From assembly GCF_003790525.1 (NCBI RefSeq), contig NZ_CP033635.1: 64,000 nt of DNA. The stretch is one strand, 5' to 3'. Made by a program: the position numbers and the translations under genes. The notes beneath the pieces were generated by a model. The model had not been told where the DNA came from and made no database searches. It saw only the letters and a program-made list of their open reading frames with translations. This document shows, one piece after another, positions 5,874-57,749 of the stretch. Within the stretch, counting starts at the first letter, position 1. The number at the start of each line of letters is the position of its first letter. This stretch comes from Escherichia coli. GTDB lineage: Bacteria > Pseudomonadota > Gammaproteobacteria > Enterobacterales > Enterobacteriaceae.

Positions 5874-6767
<894 letters not shown>

Positions 6768-6804
6768 TTACCTCATCAATCGCTTGTAGTTATATGTTGT
6801 GTTG

Positions 6805-6840
6805 TGAACATCTATCCATTTAGACGTCCAGATGTAAAGA
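6805..6840 (-). promoter_or_regulatory. metF operator region with MetJ met-box-like repeats
   Basis: tagacgtccagatgt contains adjacent 8-mers resembling the AGACGTCT met box, upstream of metF. Confidence 0.45.
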
Positions 6841-7145
6841 TGAAGGAAAAGCCGAGGGGCGTCAACCGAAAAATGACCAATGATGGTGAGGAAAAATCAG
6901 GGAAGTTGAAAAAAACTCATCTTAATTAGAGGCGATAAAAGATTTCTCTATAGCGCAATCCACCTCGCACGTTTTGACTGATATTCTGACAACACAGCGA
7001 CACCTGGGCTTATTCGAAAAACAACGTCCTGCCACCGGATGGTGATGCTAAGGCATCTGATTCGGCCTGCGCCCTCGCGTAGGCCGAATACTGGATCTGC
7101 AAAATCAACTGGTAACAAACAGATGAATCAACTCAATACGTACTT

Positions 7146-8705
7146 TTACTTGATATCTTTCACGCGCATACCGTTGATCTGTTCATCCGTGATGGTGTTA
7201 CCCGCTTTGAAGTAATCAACCACGGCGTGATAAACGTAATAACCGCCCGTTGTGTTACGCGCTTTCCCTTCGGTAAAGGCGGTAAAACCATCTCCACCAT
7301 CAGCAAGGAAACTCTGAGTAGCAATGTGGTAAATCGTCGCATCTTCAATGGGTTTGCCATTCAGAGTCAGCGTGATTACCCGCTGACCAACCGGCTTACT
7401 GCTGTCGTACTTCATTTCCAGGCCTTTCGATACCTGTAAAACGCCATTACTCAAACTTGCGCCGTGTTCCATCAAACTGCGTAATTGTTTACCCGTGAGA
7501 TCCATCGTCACCAGTTCGTTGGGGAACGGGAAGGTACTGATGACGCCACCCATCGTAATTGCACCCGCCGGGATCTCATTGCGAATCCCGCCAGAGTTGG
7601 TTAACGCCAACTGGGTATTTTTACCCGCCGCTGCCAGCAAAGCGTCTGCCGCCAGGTTCCCGAGAGAAGCTGATTCACCATAGGCACGTTTTAGTTCAAC
7701 CGGCGATTGCGCCACCGTTTGTTGCACGACTTCATCCAGCTTTTTGTTCCAACTATCAATCACCTGTTTCGTTTGCGGATCGGGCTTCCACTCATCGGCG
7801 TAAAGGGTTTTAAGCTCGAAGTTTTTCACCGTAAAAGTGTGCGGCTTCTCTTTGTAGTCGAGAACCAGTTTACCGACATCAATCCCGCCGCTGTCAGTGG
7901 AGAGGATTAACGTATTGCCGACTTTAATCGGTTCCGGCGTACCCACATGTGCATGCCCGGTGATCAAAATATCCAACCCTTTCACCTGACTTGCCGTCTG
8001 AATATCTTTATCCAGTGCGCGACGCACATCCGTGCCTCCCATACTGGACTGGCGGGCCGGAACACCTTCGTGGATCAGGGCGACGGTTAGATCAACCTTG
8101 CCTTTGAGTTCATCGATATAACGTTGTAGCCATTTAATTTCATCACGCGCCTCAATACCCACTCGCGTTGCCGCAGATACCGTATCATTAAAGGCAAATA
8201 CACCGTGCAAACCAATCACGCCAATTTTCACGCCGTCTTTTTCAATGATGGTATAGGGCTTATCCCAGAATGATTTACTGCTGTTCTGATAAAAAACATT
8301 ACCCTGCACAATCGGGAATTTTGCCTGACTCAACTGTAATAACGTATTGTCCCAGCCGTGATCAAATTCATGATTACCTATAGTGACCGCATCGAATGGC
8401 ATGGTATTCATAATATCGATAATCGCCTTGCCTTTAGTCAGGCTGCTGATATACGGTCCGGTAAAATAGTCACCCGCATCAAAAAACCAGGTCGCTTTGT
8501 TTTTAGCTTTTTCTTGTTTAACAAGCGTAGTGATATTTGCCCAGCCGCCAATATCCCGTTTACCGTCAGCAATCCACGGCACTTTATAAGGCTCTACATG
8601 TGCATGGAGGTCGTTGGTATAAATGATGGTGACATCTTTGGCGCAAGCCCAAAACGGCAGTGTTAATGCGATACCCGCAGCAAGCATTTTAATTTTCATA
8701 AACAA
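7146..8705 (-). CDS. Secreted bifunctional metallophosphatase/5'-nucleotidase (UshA/YfkN family) paralog A
   Basis: Signal peptide then [33 protein letters not shown] metallophosphatase motifs and a C-terminal 5'-nucleotidase substrate-binding region. Confidence 0.85.
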
Positions 8706-8831
8706 TCCCTTCCAGTGAGATAAAGGATTGCTACATTACGTTCTGAAAGGCTTTTTTATGTGAGAATACTCACATCCAGAGGCGATAACTGTAGGACAAA
8801 ATCAACGACCTTATGAAATCGTTGGTGATAT

Positions 8832-9959
8832 ATGTCAAATCTGTTTGCGATTAATGTCTGTAAAACGTTCGGTTGTCGAAATTTGGGATTGGCCTCATCG
8901 GAAGATTACAGTTGGCCAGACTATAAACTGGGTTTTCCGGCACTGCACTGCCAGGCATGCGGAAGTTACCCCCCTTTGTTTGATGAACAACAATTTCGTG
9001 ACTGGTTGTCAGTTCACATGACTGCGTGTGCCATAGAAACAGGGCATTTTTGTCCATCATGCTATTGTAAAGAAAAGATTTTTTATGGCCACAACCCGCA
9101 GGGAACACAACGCGTTCAATGCCGTTCATGCAAAAAAGTCTGGACTCCGAAACAGCAGCCAGCAAGAGAAATTACGTATCCCCAGTCCATTGAAACCGTT
9201 CAACTGTTCATGCCCTTTCAAGGAGCCAGCGCAGTACAAAAGCTCTATGTTTTAGTCAGTCTTGACGCCACTCGTGGCAACATCCTTCATCTCTCCACGA
9301 ATTATACGCAACATCAGACAGGAGACAGTCTGCGGTACAGTTACAGAGGCAATACAGAACCAACTGAGCACCATAGCGATATTGTGCAGAGGGTAGATAT
9401 GCGTGAAGCGCAATTCTTGCGCCGGAGCCAGTTCGATGAAATTCAGTATGGCAGTGCTGTGCTCAAGCGCAACGGCAAGGGAGCCATACTACGCCCGGTT
9501 ATCACGGCACACGGGCATTTCAGAATACTGAAAATCCGCTTTCCACATGTCAAAACGCATATCATTTCACACGAATGTTTTCTGAGAGGCGCAATTATTA
9601 CAGCCTGGGCAGATCAGTTCCGCCAACAACAAGGCGAACTTTGGTTCGTAGAAGAAGAAATCAGCGACCGTAACGCTGATATTCCCTGGCATTTTCAGGG
9701 AACGACATACCATGGTTGGTGGCAAAATCAGTGGCAACGCTGGGGGCAGGGGAATAACAGCAAGATGGTCTGCCTGCTCACAGGAGTCTCCTTAGAAAGG
9801 GGCGCAAATGTTTCTCTGGCAACCAGTCGTTGCTTTATCACATGGCTGACAGACCAACACGACTTTACCCAAAGCGCGTTATTATCCGCAGGTCGCGTAA
9901 CGAAAATGCTGACCTCACTGGCGTTAAAATACAATGAATCGCTCACTCCATCTTGTTAG
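8832..9959 (+). CDS. Hypothetical Cys-rich protein with putative N-terminal zinc-ribbon
   Basis: 375-aa ORF; N-terminus has paired CxxC motifs (CQAC, CPSC, CRSC); no family confidently recognised. Confidence 0.55.
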   Translation: MSNLFAINVCKTFGCRNLGLASSEDYSWPDYKLGFPALHCQACGSYPPLFDEQQFRDWLSVHMTACAIETGHFCPSCYCKEKIFYGHNPQGTQRVQCRSCKKVWTPKQQPAREITYPQSIETVQLFMPFQGASAVQKLYVLVSLDATRGNILHLSTNYTQHQTGDSLRYSYRGNTEPTEHHSDIVQRVDMREAQFLRRSQFDEIQYGSAVLKRNGKGAILRPVITAHGHFRILKIRFPHVKTHIISHECFLRGAIITAWADQFRQQQGELWFVEEEISDRNADIPWHFQGTTYHGWWQNQWQRWGQGNNSKMVCLLTGVSLERGANVSLATSRCFITWLTDQHDFTQSALLSAGRVTKMLTSLALKYNESLTPSC

Positions 9960-10188
9960 TCAATACACTCGACAAACGACCATAAATTAATGGGATCACT
10001 ATTTCTCATTTAATTAAATATATGAATATATGACTGAAAAATATAATCACAGTCAATGTTTAATTAATAACATTATTTGTTACCAAGATCACATAATACT
10101 TTCCTGACCTATGCTTACATAAAAATAAGACACGGTGTTCCTTTTATTTAAATAATTCAACCAATGTAACAACCCCTATCAAGGAGGG

Positions 10189-11741
10189 ATGATGAGAACT
10201 GTATTTACGACTTTATCAGTCATATTCAGCGTGATGTTTTCTCACAGTATACTAGCTCAGGACGTTACTATTTATTATACGAATGATATTCACGCACATG
10301 TCAATCCGGCAAAAATTCCCGCTGTTGATAAGAACAGACTTGTAGGTGGTATGGCTAATATTGCAGGCATCGTTAATGAAGCGAAGAAAAAAAACAAAGA
10401 TGTCTTTTTCTTTGATGCAGGCGACTATTTTACCGGTCCGTATATCAGTACCCTGACCAAAGGTGAAGCTATTATTGATATCATGAACACCATGCCCTTT
10501 GATGCGGTGTCCGTTGGTAATCACGAGTTCGATCACGGCGTGCCCAATATGGTATCTCAGTTATCAAAAGCAAAATTCCCCATTCTGCTGGGAAATATTT
10601 ACTACACCGATACAAATAAACCAGTTTGGGATCATCCGTGGACCATTATCGAAAAAGATGGTTTAAAGATTGGTGTGATTGGATTGCATGGTGCATTCGC
10701 TTTCTATGATACAGTCGCGGCAAAAGCACGTGAAGGCGTAGAAGCCAGAGACGAAATTAAATATTTAAATAAAGCACTTGCAGAATTAAAAGGTAAAGTC
10801 GACATTACCGTTTTGCTAATTCACGAAGGTGTTCCGGCGCGTCAATCAAGCTTTGGTAGTAAAGATGTGGAGCGGCTACTACAGGCAGATATTGAGACAG
10901 CTAAAAAAGTGAATGGTGTTGATGTCTTAATTACCGGTCACGCACATGTCGGAACACCGCAACCAATAAAAGTTAATAACACATTAATTGTATCTACCGA
11001 TGCATACGGCACCGACATCGGAAAACTTGTGCTTGATTACAATCCGAAAACAAAGAAAATTGATAGTTATAATGGTGAGTTAATCACCATCTTTGCAGAT
11101 CAATTTAAACCTGACACCATCGTTAAAATACTATCGATAAATGGAGCGTAAAGCTTAACAAAATAACACAGGAAGTTGTCGGCCATTCTCCCGTAGTTTT
11201 AACACGTGAGTATGGCAGTTCTTCTTCTACCGGTAATCTTATTCTGGATGCAATGATGGAAAAAACACCTGATGCCATTGCCGGATTTCAAAATAGCGGT
11301 GGGATGCGAGCTGATTTTCCTAAAGGTGATATCACACTGGGAGATGTTATTAGCACATTCCCCTTTAATAATGACCTCATCGAGATGGATTTGACGGGCC
11401 GCGATCTCAAATCGTTGATGACGCATGCAACCAATCTAACTAACGGTGTGTTACAGGTTTCAAAAAGCGTTGCGGTTGTCTATGACAGCAAAAAACCACT
11501 CAACCAACGGTTAATCTCTTTCACCATTAACGGCAAACCCGTGGAAGATAATCAAACATATCGTATTGCCACGCACTCCTTTTGTGCCAGTGGTGGTGAC
11601 GGTTTTGAAGCATTTTTGAATGGAAAAAATGTGAAGACGATACCGGGAACAACCTCGGCGGAATCTATCATCGATTATTTCAAAAATCATAAACCTGTCA
11701 CCCCAGACTTAACTAAACGAGTCATGGACGTCGCCAAATAA
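10189..11741 (+). pseudogene. 5'-nucleotidase paralog B, split by a frameshift
   Basis: Metallophosphatase domain ORF 10189..11151 and 5'-nucleotidase C-domain ORF 11253..11741; the C-domain frame stays open back to ~11127 and aligns with paralog A (IDKWSVKL vs IDSWNKKL), so a 1-nt indel near the A-tract at 11121-11130 is implied. Confidence 0.65.
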
Positions 11742-11775
11742 AATATCATTTATCAGTCTATATATTTAACAAGGA

Positions 11776-13401
11776 ATGCGAATGAAAACAGTGCAGCGTA
11801 CTTTACTTGCCGCAACATTGCTGACTATTTTTTCGGTCTCAGTCATGGCGCAGGATGTCACGATTATTTATACAAATGATCTTCACGCTCATGTGGATTC
11901 TTATAAAGTGCCGTATATCGCAGACGGAAAACGCGACATTGGCGGCTTTGCCAATATATCTACTTTAGTAAAACAGGAGAAAGCGAAAAATAAAGCCACC
12001 TTTTATTTTGATGCTGGAGACTATTTCACCGGCCCTTATATCAGCAGTCTGACAAAGGGCGAAGCAATAATTGACATTATGAATACCATGCCTTTTGACG
12101 CAGTATCAATCGGTAATCATGAGTTTGACCATGGCTGGGATAATGCCCTGCGACAATTAAGCAAAGCGAATTTTCCTGTTTTATTGGGCAATGTTTATCA
12201 TAAAGAGAGTGAGAACCCCTTCTGGAACAAGCCCTACACCATCCTGGAAAAAGATGGCATCAAGATTGGTATTATTGGGCTACACGGCGTATTTGCATTT
12301 AATGATACGGTCTCGGAGCTCTCTCTCCAGGGACTCGATAATGACAATAATAACCGCTTTGATAAATCTTCCGAGACCCTTAAGAATCAGGGGATTGAAG
12401 CACGTGATGAAGTGAAGTATTTGCAGCATTATATCGACGAGTTACGTGATAAGGTTGACCTCACTGTGGCGCTGGTTCATGAAGGCGTTCCGGCGCGTCA
12501 GTCCAGCATTGGCAATACAGATGTTAGACGCGCTCTTGATAAAGATATTCAAACCGCTAGCAAGGTGAAAGGATTGGATATTCTGATTACCGGGCATGCC
12601 CACGTCGGAACGCCAGAACCAATCAAAGTCGGCAACACCTTAATCCTTTCAACTGATAGTGGAGGTATCGATATTGGTAAATTAGTCCTTGATGTCAACC
12701 CTACAGCTCGTACCCATAAAATGAAGAGCTTTGAGCTGAAAACAGTTTATGCCGATGAATGGATACCCGATCCAACGACACAAAAAGTTATCAATGGCTG
12801 GAATAAAAAACTGGCGGATATTGTACGCCAACCAGTGGGTGAATCATCGATTGCATTAACTCGCGCCTATGGTGAGTCATCGCAACTAGGCAACCTGTTT
12901 ACCGATGCAATGCTTGTCGCTGCTCCGACTGCACAGATTGCATTGATAAACTCCGGCAGCTTACGTGCGGATATAAATGCAGGCACGATTACCTTTGGCG
13001 ACATTACCAGTACATTCCCCTTCAAGAATGAACTTACTGAAATGGATCTCAGCGGTAAGGATCTGCGTAACCTACTGGAACACGGGGCATCGCTTACCAA
13101 TGGCATCCTGCAAATGTCAAAAGGCGCAGAAATGCGCTATACCCCGCAGAAACCAGTAGGTCAGCGCATAGTATCTTTTAAAATTAATGGTGAAGAGATC
13201 GTTGATACGAATATTTACCATGTTGCAACAACGACTTTCCTTGCACTGGGGGGCGATGGTTTTCTGGCATTCAAAGAAGGGAAAAATGTTCAGGTCCGCG
13301 CCGGAAATAACATGTCCGATGTCGTGATCGATTATTTGAAGAAAGGCCACAAGATTACGCCTGCACAGGTAAATGAAATGCGGGTGGACGTTAGCAAATA
13401 A
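11776..13401 (+). CDS. Secreted bifunctional metallophosphatase/5'-nucleotidase (UshA/YfkN family) paralog C
   Basis: Signal peptide, same motif set as paralog A, with an extra D/N-rich insertion (DNDNNNRFDKSSETLKNQG). Confidence 0.85.
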   Translation: MRMKTVQRTLLAATLLTIFSVSVMAQDVTIIYTNDLHAHVDSYKVPYIADGKRDIGGFANISTLVKQEKAKNKATFYFDAGDYFTGPYISSLTKGEAIIDIMNTMPFDAVSIGNHEFDHGWDNALRQLSKANFPVLLGNVYHKESENPFWNKPYTILEKDGIKIGIIGLHGVFAFNDTVSELSLQGLDNDNNNRFDKSSETLKNQGIEARDEVKYLQHYIDELRDKVDLTVALVHEGVPARQSSIGNTDVRRALDKDIQTASKVKGLDILITGHAHVGTPEPIKVGNTLILSTDSGGIDIGKLVLDVNPTARTHKMKSFELKTVYADEWIPDPTTQKVINGWNKKLADIVRQPVGESSIALTRAYGESSQLGNLFTDAMLVAAPTAQIALINSGSLRADINAGTITFGDITSTFPFKNELTEMDLSGKDLRNLLEHGASLTNGILQMSKGAEMRYTPQKPVGQRIVSFKINGEEIVDTNIYHVATTTFLALGGDGFLAFKEGKNVQVRAGNNMSDVVIDYLKKGHKITPAQVNEMRVDVSK

Positions 13402-13409
13402 TAAAAAAA

Positions 13410-13442
13410 TTATAATGCCATTCATTCACTGAATGGCATTAT
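13410..13442 (+). terminator. Hairpin terminator after nucleotidase paralog C
   Basis: Inverted repeat aatgccattca ... tgaatggcatt followed by a T-rich run. Confidence 0.5.
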
Positions 13443-13478
13443 TTTCTCTAAATCAACAATAGATAATGAGATATATTT

Positions 13479-14339
13479 ATGTGTATAAAAAAGCACGGGA
13501 TAGCTTTATCGATTCTATTAATACCTTGCATTGGAAACGCTCAGGAAATTAAAAGTGAGGAAGGCTGGTTACATCAAAGCTTGAATGTCATTGGTCGCAC
13601 AGACTCTCGCTTTGGCCCAAGGCTGACTAACGACCTCTACCCTGAATATACTGTAGCAGGAAGAAAAGACTGGTTTGATTTTTATGGTTATGTTGATCTA
13701 CCAAAATTCTTTGGCGTCGGCAGTCACTATGATGTTGGGATCTGGGATGAGGGCTCACCACTATTTACGGAAATAGAACCTCGGTTTTCCATTGACAAAT
13801 TGACCGGATTAAATCTTGCGTTCGGCCCTTTTAAAGAATGGTTCATTGCAAACAACTATGTCTATGATATGGGTGACAACCAGTCATCCCGGCAAAGTAC
13901 ATGGTATATGGGGCTTGGTACAGATATCGACACGGGTCTACCAATTAAGCTTTCTGCCAATATATACGCCAAGTATCAGTGGCAAAACTATGGTGCCGCT
14001 AATGAAAATGAATGGGACGGATATCGATTCAAAATAAAATATAGCATTCCTCTTACCCATTTATTCGGAGGGCGATTGGTATACAATAGTTTTACTAACT
14101 TTGATTTTGGCTCCGATCTTGCGGACAAATCACACAATAATAAACGAACCAGTAATGCTATTGCTTCAAGCCATATCCTTTCCCTGCTATATGAACACTG
14201 GAAATTTGCATTTACACTACGTTATTTTCACAACGGTGGACAATGGAATGCTGGGGAGAAAGTTAACTTCGGAGATGGTCCATTTGAATTAAAAAACACA
14301 GGATGGGGAACCTATACTACTATTGGTTATCAATTTTAA
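13479..14339 (+). CDS. Tsx-family nucleoside-specific outer-membrane channel paralog
   Basis: Signal peptide; [64 protein letters not shown] blocks match E. coli Tsx as I recall it; C-terminal aromatic residue. Confidence 0.85.
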
Positions 14340-14519
14340 ATCAGGTGATGTTTTAGATATTTTTACTTAATGCCATTTTGTAATTGTCATAAATAACTTC
14401 ACCATTCACACTGTGAATTCATCGCTCAACACAAAAGCCCCCTTATTACCGGGGCACTGACCAAAGGCAAAATGACAATCAATCACCACCTCCGCAGGAG
14501 GTGGTTTAGAGGTGACAAC

Positions 14520-14543
14520 AAAAGCTGGCAACTGCCAGCTTTT
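14520..14543. terminator. Bidirectional hairpin at the metL 3' end
   Basis: aaaagctggcaactgccagctttt palindrome directly downstream of the metL stop. Confidence 0.55.
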
Positions 14544-56439: not shown

Positions 56440-57225
56440 ATGTTCAGTGATAATGTGACTAATGCGTGGTGGTTTATCTCTTTGTATCTATTTTTATTAA
56501 TAGCATTAACATTTGTTACCTTTGGTAAAAGTAATCTTATGAGGTTTATTGCACATCATTTCAATCTTGAGTATTCAGACAGAAAGTTAAAAATGCTCGA
56601 CAAAAAATGGCGCGACATTCAACTATTTAAAATAATTAACGGAATCAATGTATCAGGCATCGAAGATGTGAGAATGATACAGCAGGGGCTGATTGATGGA
56701 AAACTAAAAACATCGTATTTTTTCCTTACTCGCTTCTGGGGTGACATAACAAAACCACCACACATAATTAAAACAACAATTGTAATTCTGGCCAGTATTA
56801 TTTATATTCTCTTCGCATGTTATATACACAATGAACAATCCGCTATAGTAAGGGATGCCATAGGTATACCATATAAAAATATGATGTACTATGTTTATAG
56901 TGACAAAGTTCTTTTATCCTTCAAAAATAAAACGGTTGAATTTAATAAAACTTATAGCCTTGCCGATTGCAAGAGTCTGCAAAACGTATTTATAAAAGAC
57001 ACACTTCCCGAGATCGCCTGCAATAAGCTCTTACAGCTAAACAAGGAGGACTCCGAATGGTTAAGTCAGGAGATTAAAGATAATAACAGCCACAGAAAAA
57101 CATTATTAATAATATCCCTAACCTATTTCATTTCAGGTCTGCTTATATTCCTGTCATATACAAAATTCCTTTACGCCAATAAGAAGGTTTTAGAATACAA
57201 AGCATCAAATAAAAACCACTCATAA
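56440..57225 (+). CDS. AT-rich cargo (moron) membrane protein at the P2 orf30 position between S and V, opposite strand to the late operon
   Basis: 261 aa, about three predicted TM helices, very AT-rich, divergent from V; no family recognised. Confidence 0.6.
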   Translation: MFSDNVTNAWWFISLYLFLLIALTFVTFGKSNLMRFIAHHFNLEYSDRKLKMLDKKWRDIQLFKIINGINVSGIEDVRMIQQGLIDGKLKTSYFFLTRFWGDITKPPHIIKTTIVILASIIYILFACYIHNEQSAIVRDAIGIPYKNMMYYVYSDKVLLSFKNKTVEFNKTYSLADCKSLQNVFIKDTLPEIACNKLLQLNKEDSEWLSQEIKDNNSHRKTLLIISLTYFISGLLIFLSYTKFLYANKKVLEYKASNKNHS

Positions 57226-57261: not shown

Positions 57262-57296
57262 TGCTTAATTGCGCATCAGCCTCTGCCTTGATAAAA

Positions 57297-57749
57297 CTAA
57301 CGCTCAAGGTGAGCCAGGATAATCTCTTCAATCATCTGCACATCCTCACCGGTAAAGCCGAGCAGAGGACGCGCCGGATAATCAATTTTCTTACCGTCTT
57401 TCCGGTTTTCTTCCGACAGACCGAACTGATGCACACTGGCGATTTTCGGTGACTTCCCGCCGTAAAACTCCATTGATGCCTGTTCCGGGCTGGCGCGGAT
57501 ATGCAAAAAACGACTGGTGATAAGTTTCGCAAACATTTTTCGCTTAACACGACCGGTCTTTTTTCTGGCGCTCTGCTGCTGGCGTGGCGCGTAGGGTGTG
57601 CCGTCCGGAGCTTTCTGTGCCATCACCCGACGCTGCTGACTCTGCCGCAGGCGTTTCGCCAGTTCGGCACTCAGTCGCCGACGCCCTGACGGTGACAGCG
57701 ATTCAATCAGTCCGGTCAGCCGGTCTTCAAAACGCTTAAACTCATTCAT
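57297..57749 (-). CDS. S: Tail completion protein (gpS)
   Basis: 150 aa; position after R. Confidence 0.85.
   Translation of the reverse strand: MNEFKRFEDRLTGLIESLSPSGRRRLSAELAKRLRQSQQRRVMAQKAPDGTPYAPRQQQSARKKTGRVKRKMFAKLITSRFLHIRASPEQASMEFYGGKSPKIASVHQFGLSEENRKDGKKIDYPARPLLGFTGEDVQMIEEIILAHLER

Follow-up and report, generated by a model that had tools for sequence, protein, structure and literature searches.

Does the middle one of three paralogous 5'-nucleotidase genes in an Escherichia coli accessory island encode two small proteins, one protein expressed by unusual means, or no working protein at all? In the window, the 64,000-nt stretch of DNA that was analysed, three-frame translation resolves positions 10189–11741 into two open reading frames (ORFs) that lie in different frames and together make up this paralog. 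The split could stem from a mutation in the organism, from an error in its assembly, or from a mechanism that switches or recodes the gene. We suggest that it is very probably a genuine, very recent, lineage-private loss-of-function frameshift that has left a pseudogene of an UshA-like periplasmic 5'-nucleotidase.

The two frames divide the gene between its two domains. Frame 1 opens with an ATG at 10189 (or 10192), ends with a TAA at 11149–11151, and encodes a signal peptide followed by metallophosphatase-like sequence. Frame 3 is open from 11127 to a stop codon at 11739–11741 and encodes the 5'-nucleotidase C-terminal domain; the ORF listed at 11253–11741 is contained in it. The frames overlap by 25 nt (11127–11151), the downstream one being −1 relative to the upstream one. 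The N-terminal fragment ORF (10192–11151, plus strand; from translation and the CDS starts of orthologues) has a product of 319 aa, in which 311 native residues (signal peptide and metallophosphatase domain) are followed by eight out-of-frame residues, KILSINGA. Its start codon is likely the ATG at 10192, because the RefSeq orthologues are annotated from there and an AGGAGG is present at 10182–10187, 4 nt upstream. The 320-aa product that would begin at the first ATG (10189) has no record in the protein index of public assemblies. The rest of the gene (11127–11741, plus strand, −1 frame; from translation and Pfam) encodes the linker and the 5_nucleotid_C substrate-binding domain. The only in-frame start codons available to this part are two ATGs (11253 and 11256) that lack a clear Shine-Dalgarno sequence, and gene callers split off a C-terminal product of 161 aa (PF02872).

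Alignment with the other paralogs locates the break and bears out the description in the earlier note, which had the N and C domains in different frames, the N frame aligned up to FKPD, and the C frame open up to ∼11127 with IDKWSVKL against IDSWNKKL of paralog A. In the N frame, the match to the paralogs extends slightly further, as far as FKPDTIV, and in the C frame it starts at NTIDKWSVKL. The same note had confined a 1-nt indel to 11115–11130. Alignment with the orthologues of strains XH992 and SF-088 and base-by-base comparison with SMS-3-5 place a 1-nt deletion at 11124–11125 (plus strand), inside that interval: one C is missing between the two positions, GTT[C]AAAAT. Strains XH992, SF-088, and SMS-3-5 read GTTCAAAAT at the site and the window reads GTT-AAAAT. 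What did not hold is the link to a homopolymer. The A tract is at 11125–11128, not 11124–11128, and has four A in intact and broken alleles alike; the lost base is a C adjoining the tract, and no A within it was lost.

The missing C is the first position of the Q312 codon in a 516-aa protein with Metallophos and 5_nucleotid_C domains, and the TAA at 11124–11126 that closes frame 3 upstream is created by the deletion itself. The comparison with related strains that the earlier note had in view finds one intact ORF in XH992, SF-088, and SMS-3-5, whose orthologues RefSeq annotates as a single 1551-nt CDS of 516 aa. When the missing C is put back, Pfam places Metallophos (PF00149) at residues 26–253 (E = 3e-12) and 5_nucleotid_C (PF02872) at residues 329–475, the latter being found only in this restored protein, and the break at residue 312 falls between the two domains. 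The metal-binding motifs of metallophosphatases (DxH, GD, GNHE, H, and GHxH) are present and lie intact in the 10192–11151 ORF. TGHAHVG and other metallophosphatase motif segments are invariant in the three paralogs when aligned to 3IVD, and the C-domain motifs NSGG.R, FPF, and GGDGF are kept in all three. In the window, however, the C-terminal domain is not on the same polypeptide as the N-terminal domain, but in the other frame and behind a stop codon. From its domains and motifs, we identify the locus as a disrupted member (pseudogene) of the UshA-like 5'-nucleotidase family.

The restored protein has a close relative of solved structure. Its best match is an E. coli protein named "Nucleotidase" (PDB 3IVD/3IVE; E = 2.6e-190, residues 21–507), which we take to be the product of gene c4898 of uropathogenic strain CFT073, solved by structural genomics; 5'-nucleotidases of the Thermus, CD73, and UshA types follow among the structure matches. 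A literature search on "c4898," the solved paralog, found no relevant paper. The 3IVD/3IVE protein shares its island and family with the paralogs in the window, both domains and the metallophosphatase motifs being conserved, and its orthologue in the window is paralog A, an intact 517-aa 5'-nucleotidase (7146–8699, minus strand; 1114.5 bits over 499 residues against the 3IVD/3IVE chain). The three paralogs are 56–57% identical, with the restored middle paralog 57% identical to A and 56% identical to C. Unlike the 3IVD/3IVE protein, the middle copy in the window is frameshifted, and the two-domain protein cannot be made.

Similarity to UshA itself is more distant. UshA (PDB 1USH, 1HP1, and others) likewise combines Metallophos and 5_nucleotid_C domains behind an N-terminal signal peptide, but the middle paralog sits in an accessory island and scores 165.5 bits, when restored, against a cutoff of 600 in the UshA equivalog model NF007109. 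No equivalog cutoff is reached by the restored protein in the NCBIfam profile search. A score so far below the UshA cutoff marks the middle paralog, at the level of profile comparison, as a distant UshA-like paralog in an accessory island and distinct from ushA. In structures of the UshA/CD73 family, the dimetal center lies in the N domain and the C domain supplies the nucleotide-binding pocket, rotating onto the N domain during catalysis.

The deletion is one of very few changes that separate the window from its closest relatives. Compared base by base with SMS-3-5 (NC_010498.1), the whole 64,000 nt show exactly two differences: the 1-nt gap at 11124/11125 and a T-for-G substitution at 57289. 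The first 25 kb are 100.0% identical to SMS-3-5, XDL, TUM1586, MINF_1A, EC17CM2, and others, and in SMS-3-5, XDL, TUM1586, and MINF_1A the match to the 25,000-base query spans 25,001 bases, consistent with the C being kept. Among complete E. coli genomes, 646 match an 80-nt probe that spans the site, none of them exactly (0 of 646); the best matches are 98.8% identical (80 vs. 81 nt, one gap), and the C is kept in 646 of 646. The exact deletion junction is also absent from GTDB species-representative genomes. At the protein level, 4,658 indexed blocks of public assemblies contain the exact intact 516-aa product, against three contigs for the exact truncated 319-aa product, all three from Logan read-based assemblies, and a search for the truncated sequence among NCBI-annotated proteins found none. 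Two of the three contigs were compared with the window. Those of SRR25608274 (a 37.9-kb contig) and SRR25608277 both have the deletion and show 100% identity with the window across 6,960 and 2,686 nt, respectively; these runs may be the source of this assembly or replicates of a single isolate.

These comparisons bear on whether the C is missing from the organism or only from its assembly. An error in the source assembly, with the gene intact in the real organism, could account for a single-base indel that adjoins a short A run, that accounts for one of the two differences between the 64 kb and SMS-3-5, and that yields a truncated sequence matching no NCBI-annotated protein. Yet the base lost is a lone C outside the homopolymer, the A4 run keeps its length, and neither a GATC nor a CCWGG methylation motif can be read at the site. 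At least two separate SRA runs, in their k-mer-based Logan assemblies, moreover show the identical deletion, on contigs of up to 37.9 kb, so it is not an artefact of a single assembly. The SRA runs exclude an assembler artefact, and an error systematic to the sequencing platform, formally possible, is unlikely for a base that is not in a homopolymer. We therefore regard a source-assembly error as improbable, and the sequencing or assembly error at a homopolymer that the earlier note had raised is not supported. The deletion can be reproduced from reads and is rare, occurring only in a tiny lineage. Recent pseudogenisation, also among the readings proposed earlier, is supported by an allele otherwise identical to that of SMS-3-5, by retention of the C in the 646 genomes, and by recurrence of the deletion in assemblies from reads.

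A real deletion could still be a reversible one. As a phase-variable (contingency) locus, the gene would be switched on and off by slipped-strand mispairing at the A tract, and phase variation does affect some surface and periplasmic enzymes of other bacteria. The indel does adjoin an A run, and a frame switched by a 1-nt indel near such a run is the sole likeness of this locus to the contingency genes of Neisseria, Haemophilus, and Campylobacter. Unlike those genes, it has no repeat tract of functional length, no change in tract length, and no polymorphism at the site in the 646 genomes. The run is only four A long, with equal length in what would be the on and off alleles, and the loss of a unique C is a change that slippage neither produces nor reverts. 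Tandem Repeats Finder detects no tandem repeat in 10100–11800, a region that includes the whole gene, and an indel at the site is absent from all 646 genomes. The longest homopolymer in the gene, an A8 at 10387–10394 (encoding KKK), is unchanged relative to intact alleles. Phase-variable expression, the remaining reading of the earlier note, thus finds no support in either repeat content or length polymorphism, and we give it almost no credence. If slippage or homopolymer errors were to arise anywhere in the gene, the A8 at 10387–10394 would be the expected place.

The split could also be bridged during expression, by programmed −1 ribosomal frameshifting or by transcriptional slippage, to give a full-length protein. 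The geometry of the frames is compatible with this idea, in that the downstream frame is −1 and overlaps the upstream frame by 25 nt. However, a −1 shift could rescue the protein only within 11127–11148, and this interval has no slippery heptamer of the form X XXY YYZ. Nor is there at the site any run of eight or more A/T on which transcription could slip. The split is not conserved, homologues being single ORFs, but arose by fresh mutation. Recoding of either type is rejected, its probability being negligible.

The mutation hit a gene that is normally maintained. Between the restored allele and that of SF-088, whose coding sequences are ∼2.4% divergent, dN/dS is 0.10, and in the same comparison paralogs A and C have values of 0.03 and 0.08, respectively. 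A ratio of 0.10 points to purifying selection, and we infer that the middle gene is normally under such selection and normally functional. The deletion is the sole difference between the broken allele and the SMS-3-5 allele; as the window equals SMS-3-5 but for the deletion and one single-nucleotide substitution, the broken allele is without secondary decay. The locus thus has the features of a recent unitary pseudogene, namely a disrupted ORF, closest relatives that are intact, and no further degeneration. It resembles ordinary strain-specific frameshift pseudogenes in its single-base indel, intact relatives, lack of secondary decay, and redundant paralogs. Set against that class, nothing about it is notable, the one extra being an independent insertion of IS1 in a sister strain.

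That insertion and other disruptions raise the question of whether loss of the middle paralog has been selected. Strain EC17CM2 has an IS1 inserted in the middle nucleotidase paralog (NZ_CP190349.1, 57662–58359; 4579–5276 of the segment compared) and is otherwise 100.0% identical to the window over 25 kb. This is an independent inactivation of the gene. Fragments of the middle paralog form clusters of 246 and 313 members, many of which are partial genes at contig ends or from noisy assemblies, and further split forms of 348 + 161 and 354 + 161 aa occur in other assemblies. In contig 196 of Logan assembly SRR32364842, the hypothetical protein (280 aa), the middle paralog (348 + 161), and paralog C (291 + 268) are split together. 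Such a pattern suggests noise in the reads, not biology, and urges caution in counting fragment clusters as pseudogenes.

Adaptive loss could take the form of inactivation of the middle paralog being selected in the clone, or of a new role for the free N-terminal phosphoesterase domain, in contrast to neutral decay. The IS1 in the same gene of EC17CM2, the two fragment clusters, and the 348 + 161 and 354 + 161 split forms are in its favor. Against these, the exact intact allele predominates (4,658 blocks vs. three contigs), a dN/dS of 0.10 reflects purifying selection, and many of the fragments come from contig ends or from noisy assemblies such as SRR32364842, in which several island genes are split. 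Overall, we consider adaptive loss very unlikely. The 1-nt deletion in the window, the IS1 in EC17CM2, and the other splits elsewhere are also what would lead one to suspect that adaptive inactivation has repeatedly targeted the middle paralog in the SMS-3-5/ST354-like clone, which we hold to be very unlikely. If it were true, a periplasmic nucleotidase would be costly in some niche, for example because a toxic or immunomodulatory nucleoside is made or because cells are exposed to a Tsx-dependent route of phage or colicin entry. Recurrent disruption fits weak constraint on a redundant paralog and is too little to claim a selected loss.

Under the preferred reading, a genuine and recent loss-of-function frameshift, the consequences for the protein can be predicted from the architecture of the family. 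A single-base deletion would have hit the middle of three paralogous genes for Sec-exported UshA-like 5'-nucleotidases in the SMS-3-5 clone, and loss of the C from the Q312 codon would shift the frame in the inter-domain region. The exported product is predicted to consist of the metallophosphatase domain and eight junk residues, without the C-terminal domain and hence without the nucleotide-binding pocket. A C-terminal fragment translated from the ATG at 11253 or 11256 would have no signal peptide and would stay in the cytoplasm, so that the two halves could not reassemble in the periplasm. By analogy with the domain organization of characterized members of the family, function is almost certainly lost. 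The loss would be tolerated because two intact paralogs remain, in addition to chromosomal ushA elsewhere.

The deletion may also have an effect on the gene downstream. Paralog C, an intact 539-aa 5'-nucleotidase (11782–13401, plus strand), begins ∼40 nt past the split gene; the two are probably co-transcribed, and no terminator-like site was found between them. The premature stop would leave ∼625 nt untranslated ahead of paralog C. Given this untranslated length and the lack of a terminator-like site, some Rho-dependent polarity is conceivable, and a mild polar effect on paralog C is possible. Paralog C also has an insertion of ∼20 residues in its N domain, at about residues 180–202 (LQGLDNDNNNRFDKSSETLK), that is absent from paralogs A and B.

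The split gene is part of an island between metF and metL. According to the RefSeq annotation of relatives, the order of genes is metF, 5'-nucleotidase A, a hypothetical protein of 375 aa, nucleotidase B (the middle paralog), nucleotidase C, a Tsx-family channel, and metL. Searches with a 1.9-kb probe find the locus on the chromosome in 658 of 5,426 complete E. coli genomes (∼12%). With three nucleotidases and a Tsx-like channel, the island has no known physiological role. No Rfam family reaches its gathering score in 6700–14700, a region searched for regulatory RNA.

The findings have modest implications. The locus is to be annotated as one frameshifted pseudogene of a bifunctional metallophosphatase/5'-nucleotidase rather than as two genes, and the deletion is a private marker for a sub-lineage of the SMS-3-5 clone. 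As a case of gene loss permitted by paralog redundancy, it contributes one example, from an accessory island of E. coli that is uncharacterised. The finding itself is ordinary, and its importance hardly goes beyond annotation.

Other members of the island have features of their own. The Cys-rich 375-aa hypothetical protein (8832–9959, plus strand; from orthologue annotation and Pfam and NCBIfam searches) is conserved, is encoded between divergent nucleotidase genes, and has an N-terminus rich in CxxC pairs. It has no match in NCBIfam, and its one Pfam match, an InsA zinc ribbon, is non-significant (E = 0.043). Either a regulatory function in the island or a transposase relic is conceivable. 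Between paralog C and the tsx-like gene, a perfect palindromic hairpin with a 13-bp stem (13412–13442) scores as terminator-like in either orientation and may act to terminate or attenuate transcription between the nucleotidase genes and tsx.

Before metL, the island ends with the gene for the Tsx-family nucleoside-specific outer-membrane channel (13479–14339, plus strand; NF011686, 491.8 bits with the cutoff at 311). In the window this ORF is complete, with 286 aa ending in GYQF. RefSeq calls the gene of SMS-3-5 (NC_010498.1, 4471240–4472085; 846 nt) a pseudogene "missing C-terminus," and annotates the same DNA in XH992 and EC17CM2 as intact (861 nt, WP_000334959.1). Judged from the ORFs, the SMS-3-5 call looks like an annotation inconsistency with no real lesion behind it.

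The substitution at 57289, where the window has T and SMS-3-5 has G, is in a P2-like prophage at ∼41950–64000 (tail, baseplate, lysis, and capsid genes, and ogrK), in the short intergenic gap between the convergent ORFs 56440–57225 (plus strand) and 57297–57749 (minus strand). Bit scores equal to that of SMS-3-5 suggest that TUM1586 and EC332 share the G at this position. This part of the window also has an IS4 copy adjoining fieF. The prophage is ∼100% identical in only a few clone mates, these being SMS-3-5, TUM1586, EC332, MINF_1A, KFu014, and 2D.
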